Assembly (NCBI GenBank): GCA_041393215.1
Contig: JAWKKP010000018.1
Span: 20,675 to 84,674, forward strand
Direction: 5' to 3'
Length of the DNA: 64,000 nt
DNA from: Draconibacterium sp.
GTDB lineage: Bacteria > Bacteroidota > Bacteroidia > Bacteroidales > Prolixibacteraceae
Shown: one piece after another, positions 31,190-36,740 of the stretch
Position numbering within the stretch: position 1 is the first letter of the stretch
How the letters are laid out: every line of letters starts with the position of its first letter
Made by a program: the position numbers and the translations under genes
Notes under the pieces: model-generated
What the model saw: only the letters and a program-made list of their open reading frames with translations
Told to the model about the DNA's origin: nothing
Database searches by the model: none

Positions 31190-31294
31190 AACTTTCAATA
31201 GAAACTACAACCCTCAATTCTTTCGGTTTATCATTTTCTGTAATTACTGGAAGTTGAAGTTTTGATTTATTTATATAGAATAAAATCAGGATAT

Positions 31295-31324
31295 TTTGGG
31301 ATTTTTTTCTTTTAATTACCTTTG
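31295..31324 (+). promoter_or_regulatory. Sigma70 promoter of the hemerythrin-luxR pair
   Basis: TTTG at 31295-31298 and TACCTTTG at 31317-31324. The -7 element overlaps the GTG used by the ORF track, so the true start is more likely the ATG at 31348. Confidence 0.65.
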
Positions 31325-31347
31325 TGCCTTTAAAACAAAGGCTATTA

Positions 31348-32103
31348 ATGAATAATTACTTTCCGTTTACTGAAAAAACACGATTAGCAGACCTTATTCA
31401 TCAGGATTATAAACTTATACCCGTAATCGGTCGGTTTGGAATCAAATTTGGATTTGGAAATAAAACCGTTTCCGAAGTTTGCCGAGACTATAACATTAAC
31501 AAATGGTTTTTCCTCGAAATAATCAATTCATTTCATAATAGTAATTATTTTCCTACCGAAGAACTTCAACACTTTTCGGCACAAACAATGGTAAGTTATC
31601 TTTCAAACACGCACGCCTGGTATTTAAATGTTAAGGTGCCGGAGATTGAGGATTCCATTAATGAGATGAAACGTTTGGCTCCCAATGAGGATGTAAAGAA
31701 CATAAAACTAATCAGCGACTTTTTTCAGGAATATAAAAACGAATTGGTAATTCATTTGGATGAAGAAGACTCTAAAGTTTTTCCTTATATTATCTCGCTG
31801 GAGAAATCGCTGGAGATGGGGGTTTTTGATAAGGAACTAATTCGGAAAATCCAGGATGAATCGATTGAAGAGTACGAACGAAATCATGATAACCTTGAGG
31901 TTAAACTGGCCGATTTAAAAAATCTGATTATCAAATATCTTCCTCCCGTTTCGTCTTACGATTCATGTCAAAGATTACTCATCGAGCTGTTCCGTTTGGA
32001 AGCCGATATTGAAAATCACACCCGGATTGAGGAGAAAGTGTTGGTGCCGAAAGTAAAATTGCTGGAACAGGAAATAATTCAAATTAGTGGAGCAGGAAAA
32101 TAA
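31348..32103 (+). CDS. RIC/YtfE-like hemerythrin (di-iron) domain protein
   Basis: ScdA_N-like N-terminus; candidate iron ligands HAWY, HLDEED, HD and HTRIEE. Confidence 0.8.
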   Translation: MNNYFPFTEKTRLADLIHQDYKLIPVIGRFGIKFGFGNKTVSEVCRDYNINKWFFLEIINSFHNSNYFPTEELQHFSAQTMVSYLSNTHAWYLNVKVPEIEDSINEMKRLAPNEDVKNIKLISDFFQEYKNELVIHLDEEDSKVFPYIISLEKSLEMGVFDKELIRKIQDESIEEYERNHDNLEVKLADLKNLIIKYLPPVSSYDSCQRLLIELFRLEADIENHTRIEEKVLVPKVKLLEQEIIQISGAGK

Positions 32104-32695
32104 AAAGATCCAGGTAGCGGTTATTGCACAGCAGTTTTTAACCCGGTTGGGAATAAAAACAATTTTAAGTGTAATTGGGATTGAGCCGGAAGTTCTGGAA
32201 TCAAATAATTTTTATGATTTGAAAAATATACTGGCACGCCAGAATTTCGATTTTATGATTTTGAGCGAAGACATTTTGCCATTACCGAAAAATATAAGCC
32301 TGAACGAATTAACCGGGCTAAGCAAAAATACCCGGTTAATGGTTATTAGCGATAAAAAAATTGAAAATTGCCCATGTTCCAATTTCGTTTTGTATTCCGA
32401 TAATCAGAAAGAAGTACTGGAGAAGTTTCAGGAATTCTTTTTTGAACCTGAAAATAACTCATCGGTTGAAGGCAATGAAAATGTTTTAAGTGAACGGGAA
32501 ATTGATATTTTAAGGGAAGTTGCCTCCGGGTTTTCAAACAAAAAGATAGCAGATAAACTCCATATTAGCATAAACACTGTAATTACCCATCGAAAAAATA
32601 TTACTGAAAAACTGGGTATAAAAACCATTGCCGGACTAACTGTTTATGCATTAATCAACAATATTATCGACGCTGAAAATTTAAAGAATTTTTAA
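32087..32695 (+). CDS. LuxR-family regulator with a degenerate receiver-like domain
   Basis: LSEREIDILREVASGFSNKKIADKLHISINTVITHRKNITEKLGIK helix-turn-helix; GTG start overlapping the hemerythrin gene by 17 nt. Confidence 0.9.
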   Translation: MEQENKKIQVAVIAQQFLTRLGIKTILSVIGIEPEVLESNNFYDLKNILARQNFDFMILSEDILPLPKNISLNELTGLSKNTRLMVISDKKIENCPCSNFVLYSDNQKEVLEKFQEFFFEPENNSSVEGNENVLSEREIDILREVASGFSNKKIADKLHISINTVITHRKNITEKLGIKTIAGLTVYALINNIIDAENLKNF

Positions 32696-32883
32696 GACCT
32701 TTTGTTCTTAATTCGTCATGTTTAGGTAGAGCTTATTCTTTATCTATTCTTTTAGAACTCTAAAATCATAATTTTTAATGATCGGAAGGGATACATGATT
32801 GATTAATTTTGAAAGCAATAAGAGGTAATACGTTGGATTAATTTTTTAAAATCACTTTTAACAACACAGCATTATAATAAAAT

Positions 32884-32891
32884 TAACTTTG
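32884..32891 (+). promoter_or_regulatory. -7 element TAACTTTG for the uORF-TBDT transcript
   Basis: Exact TAnnTTTG ending 16 nt before the ATG at 32908. Confidence 0.65.
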
Positions 32892-32907
32892 CTGTCGATT
32901 GAAAATT

Positions 32908-33264
32908 ATGATATTTATACGTCGGCATATTAAGTTTCTGTTTGTTTTTGTTTTGCCAGTTTATTTATTTATTGTTCAGCAAACCATTCAGAACAAACAT
33001 ACGCATTTCTATCCCAATGGAATTGTGGTAATTCATTCGCACCCGGTTAACAAGGAAGCAGGTCAGCCAATGAATAGCCAGGGGCATTCAAAAACCGAAA
33101 TATTATTGTATGCTTCATTGCATTTTGATTTGTATAAAACTTCCGATTTCACATTCATTGAATTTGTTCAAAACGGGGAATCGAGAAACTTCTATATTGC
33201 CGACGAACGATTAGAATATACTGAATTATATCTTGAAACAATTCCACGCGGTCCACCGGCATAA
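32908..33264 (+). CDS. His-rich upstream ORF (118 aa) with C-terminal RGPP arrest-peptide motif (DUF2946/CruR-like architecture)
   Basis: Hydrophobic residues 8-23; His at 31, 33, 43, 45, 60 and 72; ends IPRGPPA*; 71 nt upstream of the TBDT gene. Confidence 0.8.
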   Translation: MIFIRRHIKFLFVFVLPVYLFIVQQTIQNKHTHFYPNGIVVIHSHPVNKEAGQPMNSQGHSKTEILLYASLHFDLYKTSDFTFIEFVQNGESRNFYIADERLEYTELYLETIPRGPPA

Positions 33265-33335
33265 TGTTTTTCACCTTTTAAAACTTTCTGCCTAAACTAC
33301 CAAAGAGATTTTATTTACCAAATCATTTTTTTACA

Positions 33336-35720
33336 ATGAAAAAGTTAATAGCGCTTTTTGTGCTATCAAGTATATGTGCGATAATTTCGGCGCAACCAGC
33401 ACCTCCACTTTCGGATGACAATTCAAAGAAAAAATTAAACACAGATGCCATGTTATTTGGTGATGTAAAATCGGAAGGAGTGCACATTCCGTTTGCAACA
33501 ATAGTAATAAAAGGAACAACCATTGGAACTGCTGCTGATGCAACCGGGCATTTTAAAATAACCAATCTCCCGGTAGGTAAACAAACGGTAGTTGTTTCCG
33601 CCATTGGTTATAAAACTGCAGAAAAAGAATTTAATCTTGAAACCAAAAAAAGTATAACATTTTTATTTGAGCTGGAACCTGATAACATTGGAATTGACCA
33701 GGTTGTGGTTTCGGCCGATCGCAATGTAAAAAGCAGACGCGAATCACCAACCATTGTTAATAGTATTAATCCATCGTTATTATCAAGAACTCAAAATGTA
33801 ACACTCAGCGAAGGTTTAAATTTTTCGCCAGGACTCAGAATGGAAAATAATTGTCAGAATTGCGGGTTTTCGCAAATCAGAATGAATGGTTTGGAAGGGC
33901 CGTATTCGCAGATATTAATTAATTCGCGCCCGGTTTTTAGCGGATTGGCGGGAGTTTACGGTCTGGAACTTATTCCGGCAAATATGATTGAACGCGTGGA
34001 GGTAATTCGTGGCGGCGGTTCGGCCATGTATGGAAGCAATGCAATTGCCGGAACCATCAATTTAATTACGAAAGATCCGGTTATCAACAACTTTTCAGTA
34101 GCCGGAAGTTTGGGTTCAGTAAAACCATCAGAAAAAGAAAATAGCAGTGATTACAGCCTGAATTTAAACGGATCGTTTGTAAGCGACGACTATAAAACCG
34201 GAATGAGTTTGTTTGGTTTTACCCGTAAAAGAAATCCATACGATGCTAACAGTGATGGTTTTTCAGAGCTTGCATTGATAGAAAACACAACGCTCGGAAC
34301 GCGAATTTATCAACGGATTTCTCATCGTGGTAAGTTAACTATTGACTATTTTAATATTGGCGAATTCCGTAGGGGTGGAAATAAATTTGAACTTCCTTTA
34401 CATGAAGCTGATATCACTGAAAGCGTAAAACATAAAATAAATTCGGGTGCTGCAACATTCGATTTATTGATGCGCGAATCCGATAAATTCTCTGTTTTCT
34501 TTTCAGGGCAAAGTGTCGATCGTGATTCATATTATGGCGCACATCAGGATTTGTCGGCCTACGGAAACACAAAAGATTTTACTTTTTCCTCGGGTGCGCT
34601 TTATATTCGGCAGGTGGAAAAATTTTTGGTTTCCCCTGCAACAATTACTTCCGGGCTTGAATGGAACGGAAGTAATTTGGAAGATACAAAATTGGGTTAC
34701 TACAATCCGGTTGATGACGTTCACTACGGAAATACATTGGTGGCCAATCAGGGAGTTTCAACTCAAGCTGGTTTTTTACAATCCGAATGGAAAATGAAAT
34801 CGTTGATTTTTACTGCCGGGTTTCGGTTCGACCATTACGAAGTTTCCGATAAAACTCATGAAAGTGACGACATTTCAGGGAATGTTTGGAGTCCGAGGCT
34901 AAGTCTTCTTTATAATATTACAGAACATTTTCAATTCAGATCTGGATTGGCAAGAGGTTTCAGGGCTCCTCAAATTTTTGATGAGGATTTGCATATTGAA
35001 ACTTCGGGCTCCAGAAAGGTAATTCACGAAAATTCTCCCGATTTAAAACAGGAAACTTCAACCAGTTTTACTTCTTCGCTCGATTTTACTGAAGATCACG
35101 GTCGCTGGCAATACCAGATTCTTATAGAAGGTTTTTATACGAAGCTGATGAATCCATTTTCAAACACTTACGGGCAACCCGATGAAAACGGAACCGTAAT
35201 TTACACCCGCGTTAATGCGGAAGACGGGGCTACAGTGAAAGGAGTAAGTTTAGAGTTTAACTTGTCGCCATCAGCGCGGTTCCAGTTGCAATCGGGTCTT
35301 ACCATCCAAAGAAGTGAGTTTGAGAAGCCACAGGAATTTAACGAAACACAATTTTTTCGTTCGCCGGATCGATATGGATACATCAGTTTAAACTATAGTC
35401 CAACCCTGCCTCTTAATATTGCTTTTACCGGAAATTATACCGGGCCGATGTTCGTTCCTTATTTTGGCCCTTTGGCAGAAAACATGGAAATTGGCCAGTT
35501 AAATAAAACCGGAAGTTTCTTTGATGCAGGCATAAAATTGAGCTATGATTTTGAAATTGCTGATGTGATTACCATGCAGGTGAATGGTGGAATTAAGAAT
35601 ATTTTCAATAGTTACCAGGATGATTTTGATACCGGTATTGATCGCGATCCGGCATATATTTACGGGCCACTTACCCCGCGAACTGTTTATTTTGGCATAA
35701 AATTCGGAAATCTGCTGTAA
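33336..35720 (+). CDS. TonB-dependent receptor (non-SusC, probable metal/cofactor importer) with a CQNC motif in the plug
   Basis: Carboxypeptidase-regulatory-like N-domain; RMENNCQNCGFSQIRMNGLEG; IERVEVIRGGGSAMYGSNAIAG; beta-barrel C-terminus. Confidence 0.92.
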   Translation: MKKLIALFVLSSICAIISAQPAPPLSDDNSKKKLNTDAMLFGDVKSEGVHIPFATIVIKGTTIGTAADATGHFKITNLPVGKQTVVVSAIGYKTAEKEFNLETKKSITFLFELEPDNIGIDQVVVSADRNVKSRRESPTIVNSINPSLLSRTQNVTLSEGLNFSPGLRMENNCQNCGFSQIRMNGLEGPYSQILINSRPVFSGLAGVYGLELIPANMIERVEVIRGGGSAMYGSNAIAGTINLITKDPVINNFSVAGSLGSVKPSEKENSSDYSLNLNGSFVSDDYKTGMSLFGFTRKRNPYDANSDGFSELALIENTTLGTRIYQRISHRGKLTIDYFNIGEFRRGGNKFELPLHEADITESVKHKINSGAATFDLLMRESDKFSVFFSGQSVDRDSYYGAHQDLSAYGNTKDFTFSSGALYIRQVEKFLVSPATITSGLEWNGSNLEDTKLGYYNPVDDVHYGNTLVANQGVSTQAGFLQSEWKMKSLIFTAGFRFDHYEVSDKTHESDDISGNVWSPRLSLLYNITEHFQFRSGLARGFRAPQIFDEDLHIETSGSRKVIHENSPDLKQETSTSFTSSLDFTEDHGRWQYQILIEGFYTKLMNPFSNTYGQPDENGTVIYTRVNAEDGATVKGVSLEFNLSPSARFQLQSGLTIQRSEFEKPQEFNETQFFRSPDRYGYISLNYSPTLPLNIAFTGNYTGPMFVPYFGPLAENMEIGQLNKTGSFFDAGIKLSYDFEIADVITMQVNGGIKNIFNSYQDDFDTGIDRDPAYIYGPLTPRTVYFGIKFGNLL

Positions 35721-35742
35721 TCCGTTTTCAGGGATAGATATT

Positions 35743-35781
35743 AAGGGCTACTTGTTGATACTAAGTGGCCTTTATTTATTT
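35743..35781 (+). terminator. Terminator after the TBDT gene
   Basis: AGGGCTACTT/AAGTGGCCTT stem plus T-rich tail. Confidence 0.75.
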
Positions 35782-35840: not shown

Positions 35841-36740
35841 ATGAATGAATCGAATGTTCAGCAGAATAAAAGTAAAGATTTGAGAAATAACATTATTGTA
35901 ATCGCTCTCTCTGTAATTTTAGTGGCCGTGGTTGTTTTGTTTTTTATGCAACGAAAAGAACACCGGGCAATGTTGGGAGATATTAAGGCTGAAAAAGATT
36001 CGATTCAATTTGAACTCACACAGATTTCTGCTGGTTACGATTCGTTGAGAACGGAAAACGATACCATTAATGAACAGCTCGTTTTGGCCCAGTCGAAAGT
36101 AAGAGATTTGTTACTTGAGGTTGAACAAACCAAAAAGGTGAGTTATGAGAAAATTAACGACTATCAAAAGCAAGTAACTACTTTACGGGGAATTATGCGG
36201 GACTTTGTTGTGCAAATTGATTCTTTAAACCGAAGAAATGAGCAATTAATGGCGGAAAACCTGCAAGTGAAAGAACAATTTAAGGAGTCTGAAATTCGAA
36301 ACGAAAAGCTAAACCAGGAAAAAGCAAAACTTCAGCAAAACCTTCAATTGGCGGCCATGCTTGAAACGCGCGAACTAACCGTTGATGCATTGAATTCAAG
36401 AAGTAAGGAAACCAAATTTGCAAATCGTGCCGAAAAAATAAGAATATACTTTATTTTAAACAGCAATGTAACTGCTAAAAGAGGGGCCAAAAATATTTAC
36501 GCCAGAATTATGCGCCCGGATCAGCTTTTGTTAACCAAATCGCCCAACAATATTTTTCAGTTTGAAGATTTGAAAATACCGTATTCAGCCATGCGCGAAA
36601 TCAATTATGAAGGGCTGGAACTACCTGTTGCCATATATTGGGATAACACCGATGAACCTGCTTTAATGCCGGGTCAGTATGTTGTTAATCTTTTTGCTGA
36701 CGGAAGTGAAATTGGCGAAGCAACTCTGGAATTGAAATAA
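35841..36740 (+). CDS. Membrane-anchored coiled-coil protein of unknown function
   Basis: Single N-terminal TM helix, long Q/E/K/L-rich heptad region and a globular beta-rich C-terminus. Confidence 0.75.
   Translation: MNESNVQQNKSKDLRNNIIVIALSVILVAVVVLFFMQRKEHRAMLGDIKAEKDSIQFELTQISAGYDSLRTENDTINEQLVLAQSKVRDLLLEVEQTKKVSYEKINDYQKQVTTLRGIMRDFVVQIDSLNRRNEQLMAENLQVKEQFKESEIRNEKLNQEKAKLQQNLQLAAMLETRELTVDALNSRSKETKFANRAEKIRIYFILNSNVTAKRGAKNIYARIMRPDQLLLTKSPNNIFQFEDLKIPYSAMREINYEGLELPVAIYWDNTDEPALMPGQYVVNLFADGSEIGEATLELK

Follow-up and report, generated by a model that had tools for sequence, protein, structure and literature searches.

CruR (Bp2923) of Bordetella pertussis, a member of DUF2946 with CXXC and a C-terminal RAPP sequence, heads the bfrG receptor operon; its nascent chain senses copper, arrest is thereby relieved and Rho termination follows (PMC9426467), and the arrest has been shown in vitro (PMC12992588). 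Ribosome arrest has been published for both RAPP and RGPP (PMC12992588, PMC10951233), motifs that are strongly avoided in proteomes, and upstream open reading frames (uORFs) carrying them are enriched 5′ of TonB-dependent receptors (RGPP 4450 versus 125 for an AGPP control; PMC12992588). In Porphyromonas gingivalis, PG1236 is a hemerythrin-like protein and PG1237 (CdhR) a LuxR-type regulator; the pair responds to nitric oxide (NO), and CdhR regulates the TonB-dependent receptor operon hmuYR (PMC10434189, PMC11018363). Iron depletion induces the P. gingivalis operon 7-fold and its Bacteroides thetaiotaomicron counterpart, BT0519-0520, 16–20-fold (PMC10434189, PMC11018363), while in Prevotella intermedia the hemerythrin and LuxR proteins are fused into one (PMC10434189). 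Here we analyze a locus in which genes resembling both systems stand side by side: positions 31,295–35,781 of a 64,000-nt stretch, hereafter the window, from Draconibacterium sp. (GCA_041393215.1, contig JAWKKP010000018.1, positions 20,675–84,674 of the forward strand). It encodes a hemerythrin-domain protein, a LuxR/GerE regulator, a His-rich leader ending in RGPP, and a TonB-dependent receptor with a CxxC motif in its plug.

A preliminary description of this locus had presented the four co-oriented genes, with two promoters and a closing terminator, as one sensing module. Its inventory proved accurate, as an open reading frame (ORF) check recovered the four same-strand ORFs, both −7 boxes and the terminator (Table 1), and Pfam and NCBIfam profile matches bore out the identity of each gene. 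As the conservation described below makes clear, these features go well beyond what chance would produce. The single module did not survive a survey of gene neighborhoods. Hemerythrin and LuxR genes are present in 0 of the 36 loci with the closest leader homologues, approximately 21 of which carry a DUF3859 gene, so that the four genes are not syntenic at orthologous loci. The locus is made up of two obligate two-gene cassettes rather than one conserved four-gene module. Our preferred reading, to which we assign a probability of roughly 55%, is that these are two regulatory cassettes for metal acquisition, a CruR-like leader–receptor unit and a CdhR-like hemerythrin–regulator pair, that evolution has repeatedly placed together.

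The leader begins with a basic N-terminus and a hydrophobic helix, continues with HTH-x9-HSHP and GHSKTE, and runs through a variable linker of 56 residues to PRGPPA and the stop codon. No Pfam family matched the 121-residue protein at E ≤0.01, and the only NCBIfam match was a spurious one to a His-rich HypB prefix. A database search yielded 27 homologues, the named ones from Draconibacterium, Mariniphaga and Maribellus, and the leader family was present in 64 of 121 genomes, representing 26 of 36 genera, of the bacterial family to which the window belongs, and in 9 of 301 genomes of an even sample of the phylum. In the alignment of the 27 homologues, H34, T35, H36, G41, H46, H48, P49, P57, H63, E67 and I68 are invariant, as are R117, P119 and P120 of the terminal motif, with G118 conserved above 90% (one sequence has RAPP). 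Conserved cysteines are absent; the invariant candidate ligands are instead H34, H36, H46, H48, H63 and E67. In the same alignment the linker is poorly conserved and the tail after the two prolines is free, from 1 to 15 residues. Nearly all matches to a hidden Markov model of the family (50 of 51) end in R-[GASD]-P-P, and 49 distinct further family ORFs comprise 24 with RGPP, 19 with RAPP, five with RSPP and one with RDPP. Eight loci found phylum-wide mostly have R-x-P-P as well, with the variants KSPP, RPPP and RASP. The codons of the motif differ synonymously between loci, which argues for selection on the peptide. We found no arrest tests of the RSPP or RDPP variants in the literature consulted on RAPP/RGPP arrest.

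Spacing is the second regularity of the family. Counted from the final His motif (HxH[ST]), the arginine is 56 residues away in 36 of the 49 ORFs, as in the window leader, 54 in 11, and 55 and 57 in one each. A linker that varies in sequence and is fixed in length would look like a ruler from a sensor to the peptidyl-transferase center. By our own estimate, about 55 residues would roughly span the ribosomal tunnel and the translocon channel together. In its AlphaFold2 model, the leader has a helix at residues 2–29, a β-hairpin (33–37 and 43–47) bearing two HxH pairs, and a disordered remainder. A scan of the window genome for ORFs of 50–220 residues with a hydrophobic stretch at the N-terminus, R[AGS]PP in the tail and a long ORF downstream returned the leader alone. 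It had been introduced as a His-rich uORF ending in RGPP; the ending stands, and "uORF" is too modest a term for a membrane-anchored protein of 118 residues. In the leaders of L068, L070, L071, L079, L090 and L091 the linker contains a further hydrophobic helix and the spacing is 54 rather than 56, and this subfamily is the one most often linked to hemerythrin–LuxR genes.

Wherever a fetched locus extends far enough 3′ of the leader, a homologous receptor gene comes next: at 35 of the 36 loci with the closest leader homologues (the contig of the other one ends first), at additional loci of the wider samples, and at all eight of the phylum-wide loci. All 52 receptor homologues, paralogues of 35% identity among them, have E-x-x-C-Q-[NT]-C-G-F-[ST]-Q in the plug, and the eight phylum-wide loci all carry a plug CxxC in the form of CQNC, CQYC or CNNC. 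The receptor fell below the cut-off of every NCBIfam receptor family in a profile search. Assignment to SusC/RagA was rejected, with TIGR04056 scoring 60 bits against a cut-off of 368 and the next gene past the terminator being DUF8429/DUF8428 rather than SusD, and so was assignment to the TonB-dependent heme receptors (TIGR01785, 106 bits against 317). The original call of a non-SusC receptor with CQNC in its plug is thus upheld. Among solved structures, CirA is the nearest to it (E 1e-21). The same genome (C15:71067-73379, minus strand) and relatives (L001:8870-11203; L002:8879-11212) also encode a paralogue of 35% identity whose plug has CQTC; it is convergent to the leader-linked receptor in some relatives, and no leader of the His-rich family was detected beside it.

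The composition of the spacer between leader and receptor is also unusual. A C/(C+G) ratio of at least 0.78 occurs in only 4% of the 603 co-oriented spacers of 40–100 nt in the window genome, where the mean is 0.51, and C exceeds G in 17 of 17 orthologous spacers of up to 80 nt. The window spacer has no significant hairpin (fold z-score 0.27), and the genome contains a rho gene. In two wastewater metatranscriptomes (X11 and X14), RNA contigs covering the leader ORF end inside the spacer, at 33308 and 33303, which fits attenuation and is suggestive only. At four other loci (L002, L001, L012 and L007) a terminator-like hairpin begins at the leader stop codon and is followed by a run of T, for example TGTCTTTG...CGAAAGACA TTATTTTTT in L002; its counterpart in the window is weak. 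The same control may here take the form of an attenuator. Overall, the invariant R-x-P-P, the variable tail, the spacing of 54–57 residues, the C-rich and G-poor spacer and the obligate receptor downstream support the proposal that the RGPP ORF is probably a CruR-like arrest leader.

The closest likeness is to CruR and to CutF of Rhodobacter capsulatus. According to published accounts (PMC9426467; PMC12992588; bioRxiv 10.1101/2025.02.05.636593), these too are small exported or membrane proteins, first in their operons, in which a variable linker separates a conserved metal-ligand motif from a RAPP-type motif close to the stop codon. CruR shares with the leader its place directly ahead of a TonB-dependent transporter gene, and the leader has a −7 box of its own. 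By analogy, the logic proposed for both would be the same, namely a nascent-chain metal sensor that sets expression of the downstream gene. In contrast to CruR, the leader has no DUF2946 (PF11162) match, and its ligands are His (HxH, HxHP, HxHS) rather than CXXC. As judged by sequence and the AlphaFold2 helix, its N-terminus would be a membrane anchor, where that of CruR is mostly a cleaved signal peptide. The leader belongs to Bacteroidota, none of which are listed in the DUF2946 synteny survey of Roy et al., and its receptor has a plug CxxC and is not OprC-like. With the RAPP/RGPP arrest peptides of the ApdA, ApdP and SecM class, whose core is R-[AG]-P-P or RAGP, the leader shares an R-[AG]-P-P near the C-terminus and a variable upstream sequence. 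Members of the leader family are in fact contained in a 2025 survey by Chiba and colleagues (EMBO J, PMC12992588), where source-data files 24 and 27 hold them as "hypothetical protein". One of them, HCE57455.1, ends in ...GLRGPPFLQIS ahead of a TonB-dependent receptor and matches the leader in motif position and localization signal. A term search of the main text of the survey returned no description of the leader family, of its His motifs, 54–57-residue spacing, CxxC-plug partner or hemerythrin–LuxR link, and no experiment on the family (PMC12992588).

The hemerythrin-domain protein resembles RIC/YtfE/ScdA proteins in having an ScdA_N-like domain, a hemerythrin domain and the H...HxxxE...H...HxxxE pattern, and it aligns over its full length with Staphylococcus aureus ScdA (E 6e-5). 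Residues H89, H136, E140, H180, H224 and E228 are invariant among its homologues. Unlike RIC, it scores 75.8 bits with the RIC profile TIGR03652, below the cut-off of 204.7, its N-terminal domain has GIKFGFGN in place of GIDFCCGG (CC to GF), and in the alignment it appears to lack one His ligand, the equivalent of YtfE His105. The hemerythrin family occurs in 203 of 301 genomes of the order, and the closest homologues of the window protein (59–66% identity) are from Saccharicrinis, Carboxylicivirga, Marinilabiliaceae, Geofilum and Puteibacter. Pairing with a regulator, which also sets it apart from RIC, is close to universal. A LuxR gene lies directly downstream of the hemerythrin gene for all of the best 30 homologues in the family sample (37–62% identity) and at 78 of 79 evaluable loci among the 80 named loci of our genome collection, mostly with overlapping or near-abutting stop and start codons. 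In the window, where the two genes overlap by 17 nt, the regulator is probably translationally coupled to the hemerythrin gene.

The regulator itself was modeled with high confidence (AlphaFold2 pLDDT 91.5) as a receiver fold followed by a LuxR/GerE helix-turn-helix. The top Foldseek matches were LiaR, StyR, FixJ, NarL and EvgA (E 5e-10 to 1e-8), with VpsT also among the best. The fold and helix-turn-helix are those of NarL/FixJ response regulators, without the phospho-acceptor Asp: Ser60 occupies that position, the column varies among S, N, D, E, H and T across 30 homologues, and the acidic pair after β1 is absent (Ala14-Gln15). Pfam Response_reg gave no match in the regulator even at E 0.5. 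Taken together, Ser60, the variable acceptor column and the missing acidic pair indicate a phosphorylation-independent, pseudo-receiver regulator. The proposal that the hemerythrin protein is the input partner of the LuxR protein was supported by this Asp-less pseudo-receiver, by the near-universal adjacency, and by the fusion reported in P. intermedia. No fusion of hemerythrin and regulator was present among the matches listed from the 301 genomes of the order. One candidate, a 425-residue protein of G014 (L164:262-3217; G014:C21), turned out to be a canonical RIC with GIDFCCGG fused to a second hemerythrin domain. Its gene is directly downstream of the hybrid-cluster protein gene hcp, and a canonical CC-motif RIC in this position marks the true NO-repair RIC as a separate paralogue.

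For comparison with CdhR, we searched with the published primers. The PG1236 primer found the metagenomic contig L166, while the PG1237 primer had no match in the genome collection. Contig L166 carries ORFs of 236 and 199 residues that overlap by 4 nt, beside an RluA gene; the first starts with the published PG1236 primer sequence, and the second with MNIITLK, as in the PG1237 primer. The window hemerythrin protein is 34% identical to the PG1236-type ORF over 237 of 251 residues (E 4e-43). In BLASTP, the regulator is 32% identical to the CdhR-type ORF over 158 residues (E 2e-20), its N-terminal 66 residues remaining unaligned. In P. gingivalis, B. thetaiotaomicron and the window alike, a hemerythrin protein of about 240–250 residues precedes a LuxR regulator of about 200 residues, the stop codon of the one gene overlapping the start of the other (by 17 nt in the window and by 4 nt in L166). 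By sequence homology to PG1236–CdhR, the hemerythrin–LuxR pair is of the CdhR type. Unlike its P. gingivalis counterpart, it is directly upstream of a receptor operon with an arrest-type leader, the receptor is not HmuR-like, and hmuY is absent. The preliminary description knew of no characterization of such a circuit in Bacteroidota, a statement that is outdated, as both cassettes have published precedents: the homologous pairs PG1236–CdhR and BT0519-0520 have been studied and respond to iron and NO, CdhR controls hmuYR, and leader members are contained in the source data of the 2025 RGPP/RAPP survey. What is new, and open to testing, is the His-based chemistry, the fixed ruler of 54–57 residues, a co-evolving receptor with CxxC in its plug, and the repeated linkage to the CdhR-type pair, with some leaders directly before that pair.

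How the two cassettes came together can be followed in the relatives. Six relatives with long contigs share a backbone of TetR, RNase R, Big_5, a 98-residue gene, leader, receptor and DUF8429/8428, and all six have a divergent DUF3859 gene where the window has hemerythrin–LuxR. Other genomes of the same genus contain no hemerythrin homologue above 39% identity. Together with the DUF3859-bearing backbone, this indicates that the pair was inserted beside a resident leader–receptor unit. The window receptor is nested in a DUF3859-type clade of the receptor tree, beside a locus of the same genus. Compositional signs of recent transfer were not found, GC and GC3 of hemerythrin–LuxR being the same as those of the neighboring genes. 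The DUF3859 protein (127–131 residues, without a signal peptide) is encoded divergently about 80 nt from the leader in most relatives (for example L001:5532-5915, minus strand), and may serve the leader–receptor unit as an alternative partner or regulator. It was not found in the window genome, a negative of little weight given that control genomes gave no match either.

Cassettes were co-located in the window genome and in seven other genomes of the family sample, from four other genera (G067 twice, G088, G107, G034, G083, G117 and G090), as well as in Saccharicrinis, Roseimarinus and several metagenome-assembled genomes (MAGs). At least four gene orders were observed. Hemerythrin, LuxR, leader and receptor follow one another in G067 (contig C69), G107, G088 and G034; the leader–receptor unit precedes the pair in G083, G117, Saccharicrinis FJH54 and FJH62, and Roseimarinus sediminis; an OprB porin and FeoA-FeoB intervene between LuxR and leader in G090; and the cassettes are convergent, 5 kb apart, in G067 (contig C57) and L100. 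In three Bacteroidales MAGs (L087:4550-4943, L088:4519-4945 and L099:3464-3839), an RGPP/RAPP leader stands before hemerythrin–LuxR instead of before a receptor gene, with a spacer of about 55 nt, and here the leader may gate the regulator operon itself. On the receptor tree, hemerythrin linkage requires six changes, at least five of them forced by well-supported branches. In these samples 7–9 co-locations were observed, against some 0.1–0.5 expected by chance in a rough estimate of our own for 10-kb neighborhoods. Most loci carry one cassette alone, so the linkage is facultative. These gene orders and counts make a functional link between the cassettes likely, and the recurrent linkage argues for a shared regulon, probably one for limitation of iron or another metal.

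Several observations nevertheless weigh against the reading of two repeatedly combined metal-acquisition cassettes. In addition to the absence of the pair from the closest leader loci, approximately 73 of 80 hemerythrin–LuxR cassettes are not near a leader–receptor pair, and a search for an operator common to both window promoter regions gave only trivial AT-rich 8-mers. With regard to the CruR-like half, the AlphaFold2 model of the leader has a pLDDT of 65, a low confidence below use for fold search, and the long spacers (130–330 nt) of other loci lack the C skew. Folding of 17 short spacers revealed no shared conserved hairpin that would hide the receptor start in the style of SecM or CutF (z −2.2 to +0.3). 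The RNA data are assembled contigs rather than reads and cannot define transcript ends, and the contigs start upstream of the predicted transcription starts. The clues to the metal conflict, in that NiFe hydrogenase genes at one locus, the His ligands and the plug CxxC would also fit Ni, Co, Zn or Cu. Finally, the analysis establishes homology to PG1236–CdhR, the identity of the genes, the conservation of the family, its synteny and spacing, and the makeup of the spacer; the arrest, its release by metal, the Rho step, the signal from hemerythrin to regulator and the target of the regulator are all inferred.

A rival reading makes the cassettes neighbors by accident: a lineage-specific rearrangement would have brought the pair to this place, its targets would be other genes in a dispersed regulon for iron or NO stress, as for CdhR, and the receptor would be under the leader alone. 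We consider this somewhat unlikely. It draws on the 0 of 36 closest leader loci, on the DUF3859 gene in the backbone of relatives, on a best same-genus hemerythrin homologue of only 39% identity, and on the conserved promoter that the leader–receptor unit has for itself; most hemerythrin–LuxR cassettes moreover adjoin unrelated genes, and no shared operator was found. It leaves unexplained the co-location in at least five genera, in four gene orders and through at least 5–6 changes on the tree, where our estimate allows for less than one chance case, and also the three loci in which a leader is directly ahead of hemerythrin–LuxR. Moreover, CdhR itself regulates a TonB-dependent receptor operon (PMC11018363).

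The two halves of the preferred reading face one alternative each. The leader could be a stable inner-membrane metal-binding partner of the receptor, such as a metallochaperone or signal transducer turned toward the periplasm, with R-x-P-P serving as a structural or processing motif. That role is in keeping with the strong conservation of the first 70 residues, membrane helix and six His/Glu positions included, with the subfamily that has a second hydrophobic helix in its linker, and with the inferred status of the arrest. We regard it as improbable, since the C-terminal half, for all its variable sequence and predicted disorder, is fixed in length within 1–2 residues, which fits a ruler better than a fold, and since RGPP and RAPP are proven arrest motifs avoided in proteomes (PMC12992588). 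The tail of 1–15 residues after the prolines and the three leaders ahead of the non-receptor operon hemerythrin–LuxR also speak against a stable partner. That the hemerythrin-like gene encodes an ordinary RIC/YtfE iron–sulfur repair enzyme, with LuxR merely an operon neighbor, is in our view highly improbable. Full-length similarity to RIC/ScdA, and the label "regulator of cell morphogenesis and NO signaling" that JGI gives to close homologues, would favor it; the score of 76 against 205 bits, the Gly-Phe in place of Cys-Cys, the separate canonical CC-motif RIC beside hcp in a relative, the near-universal coupling to a regulator and the P. intermedia fusion (PMC10434189) all oppose it.

If the two-cassette reading is correct, the following mechanism can be proposed. 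Cassette 1 (32884–35774) would be transcribed from its own promoter, and the N-terminal helix of the leader would insert co-translationally into the inner membrane, so that the His-rich hairpin (HxH...HxHP...HxHS) faces the periplasm. The ribosome would stall at R-G-P-P with the last His motif 56 residues from the peptidyl-transferase center. When metal is scarce, the stall would persist, the ribosome would sit over the first part of the C-rich, G-poor spacer, and transcription would continue into the receptor gene. Metal binding to the emerging His motif would cause folding that pulls on the nascent chain and releases the stall; the ribosome would then terminate, and Rho or another attenuation step would lower receptor expression. 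Cassette 2 (31317–32695) would be the CdhR system of Bacteroidales, in which a cytoplasmic di-iron hemerythrin-like protein may report iron status, and possibly NO or O2, to the NarL/FixJ-type regulator by protein contact with the pseudo-receiver domain and without phosphorylation. In the window genome, this pair would have been inserted beside cassette 1 in place of the DUF3859 gene, and the regulator would probably act on the promoter region 32696–32907. Both dual control of the receptor and direct control of its promoter by the regulator are plausible. The fullest version of the model makes the leader a co-translational periplasmic sensor of iron or another divalent metal, with a 56-residue ruler, that gates the CxxC-plug receptor and in some genomes the CdhR-type operon, in a two-compartment circuit whose nascent chain would report on metal in the periplasm and whose hemerythrin would report on iron, NO or O2 in the cytoplasm; as a whole this is unlikely and offered tentatively.

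As to the metal, iron fits the gene context best, judging from FeoAB, flavodoxin and the iron induction of CdhR. In L078 (G090:C8:28000-40000), hemerythrin, LuxR, an OprB-family porin, a FeoA-FeoB fusion (828 residues), the leader and the CxxC-plug receptor follow on one strand in what looks like a complete iron-uptake island. Flavodoxin and DUF6686 genes follow hemerythrin–LuxR at about ten loci, a context that echoes the iron-starvation-induced BT0515-0520 region of B. thetaiotaomicron. At L069:12731-15869 (G067), NiFe hydrogenase genes are directly beside the leader–receptor pair, which hints at nickel; only the large subunit has a Pfam match, the maturation protease and small subunits being judged by sequence.

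TonB-dependent receptors dominate the Bacteroidota outer membrane, and metal control of the non-SusC members is poorly understood. If the proposal holds, metal sensing by His residues of a nascent chain, over a linker of fixed length, would be a second case of the CruR mechanism, independent of the first, and a natural test case for how a ligand bound beyond the ribosome releases an arrest. The regulator CdhR is important to the oral pathogen P. gingivalis in heme uptake and community behavior, and on the fullest version of the model a leader before a CdhR-type operon would supply the missing metal input to the CdhR regulon. The recurrent linkage provides a concrete, testable hypothesis in non-pathogenic relatives, including the loci with a leader directly before the regulator operon.

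Table 1. Features of the hemerythrin–LuxR and leader–receptor cassettes (window coordinates)
Feature	Position	Strand	Remarks
TACCTTTG	31317-31324	+	−7 box, hemerythrin–LuxR operon; fits TAnnTTTG, 24 nt ahead of ATG 31348
Hemerythrin-domain protein, 251 aa	31348-32103	+	Pfam Hemerythrin, E 4e-8
LuxR/GerE regulator, 202 aa	32087-32695	+	GerE, E 2e-18; 17-nt overlap with hemerythrin gene
TAACTTTG	32884-32891	+	−7 box, leader–receptor operon; fits TAnnTTTG
His-rich leader, 118 aa (121 aa from TTG 32899)	32908-33264	+	Ends PRGPPA-stop; no Pfam/NCBIfam family
RGPP codons CGC GGT CCA CCG	33247-33258	+	Proposed ribosome-arrest site; one Ala codon and stop follow
Leader–receptor spacer, 71 nt	33265-33335	+	14 C, 4 G; candidate Rho-loading/attenuation region
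TonB-dependent receptor, 794 aa	33336-35720	+	CarbopepD_reg_2, Plug and TonB-dependent barrel (Pfam)
Plug CQNC, residues 173-176	33852-33863	+	Inside receptor gene
Intrinsic-terminator-like hairpin, 13 pairs, then TTTATTT	35742-35774	+	Closes operon

The start codons and promoters of both operons could be refined. An alternative GTG start of the hemerythrin gene at 31324 is less likely than ATG 31348 because it overlaps the TACCTTTG −7 box, and the leader was assigned the Met start at 32908, where its homologues also begin. The −7 promoter consensus of Bacteroidota is TAnnTTTG, and this element occurs within 70 nt 5′ of the leader ORF at 26 of 44 orthologous loci, mostly 14–31 nt before it. 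The hemerythrin region is covered by an RNA contig from the assembled metatranscriptome X11, which spans 31284–32299. Beyond the terminator, at 35841–36740, a membrane-anchored coiled-coil protein of 299 residues (DUF8429/DUF8428 in relatives) is kept downstream of the receptor across genera. At the other end of the locus, an inverted repeat (CCTTTGT-N9-ACAAAGG, 31319–31341) lies across the −7 box and the 5′ end predicted for the hemerythrin mRNA, and from its sequence could be an operator or a 5′-untranslated-region hairpin.

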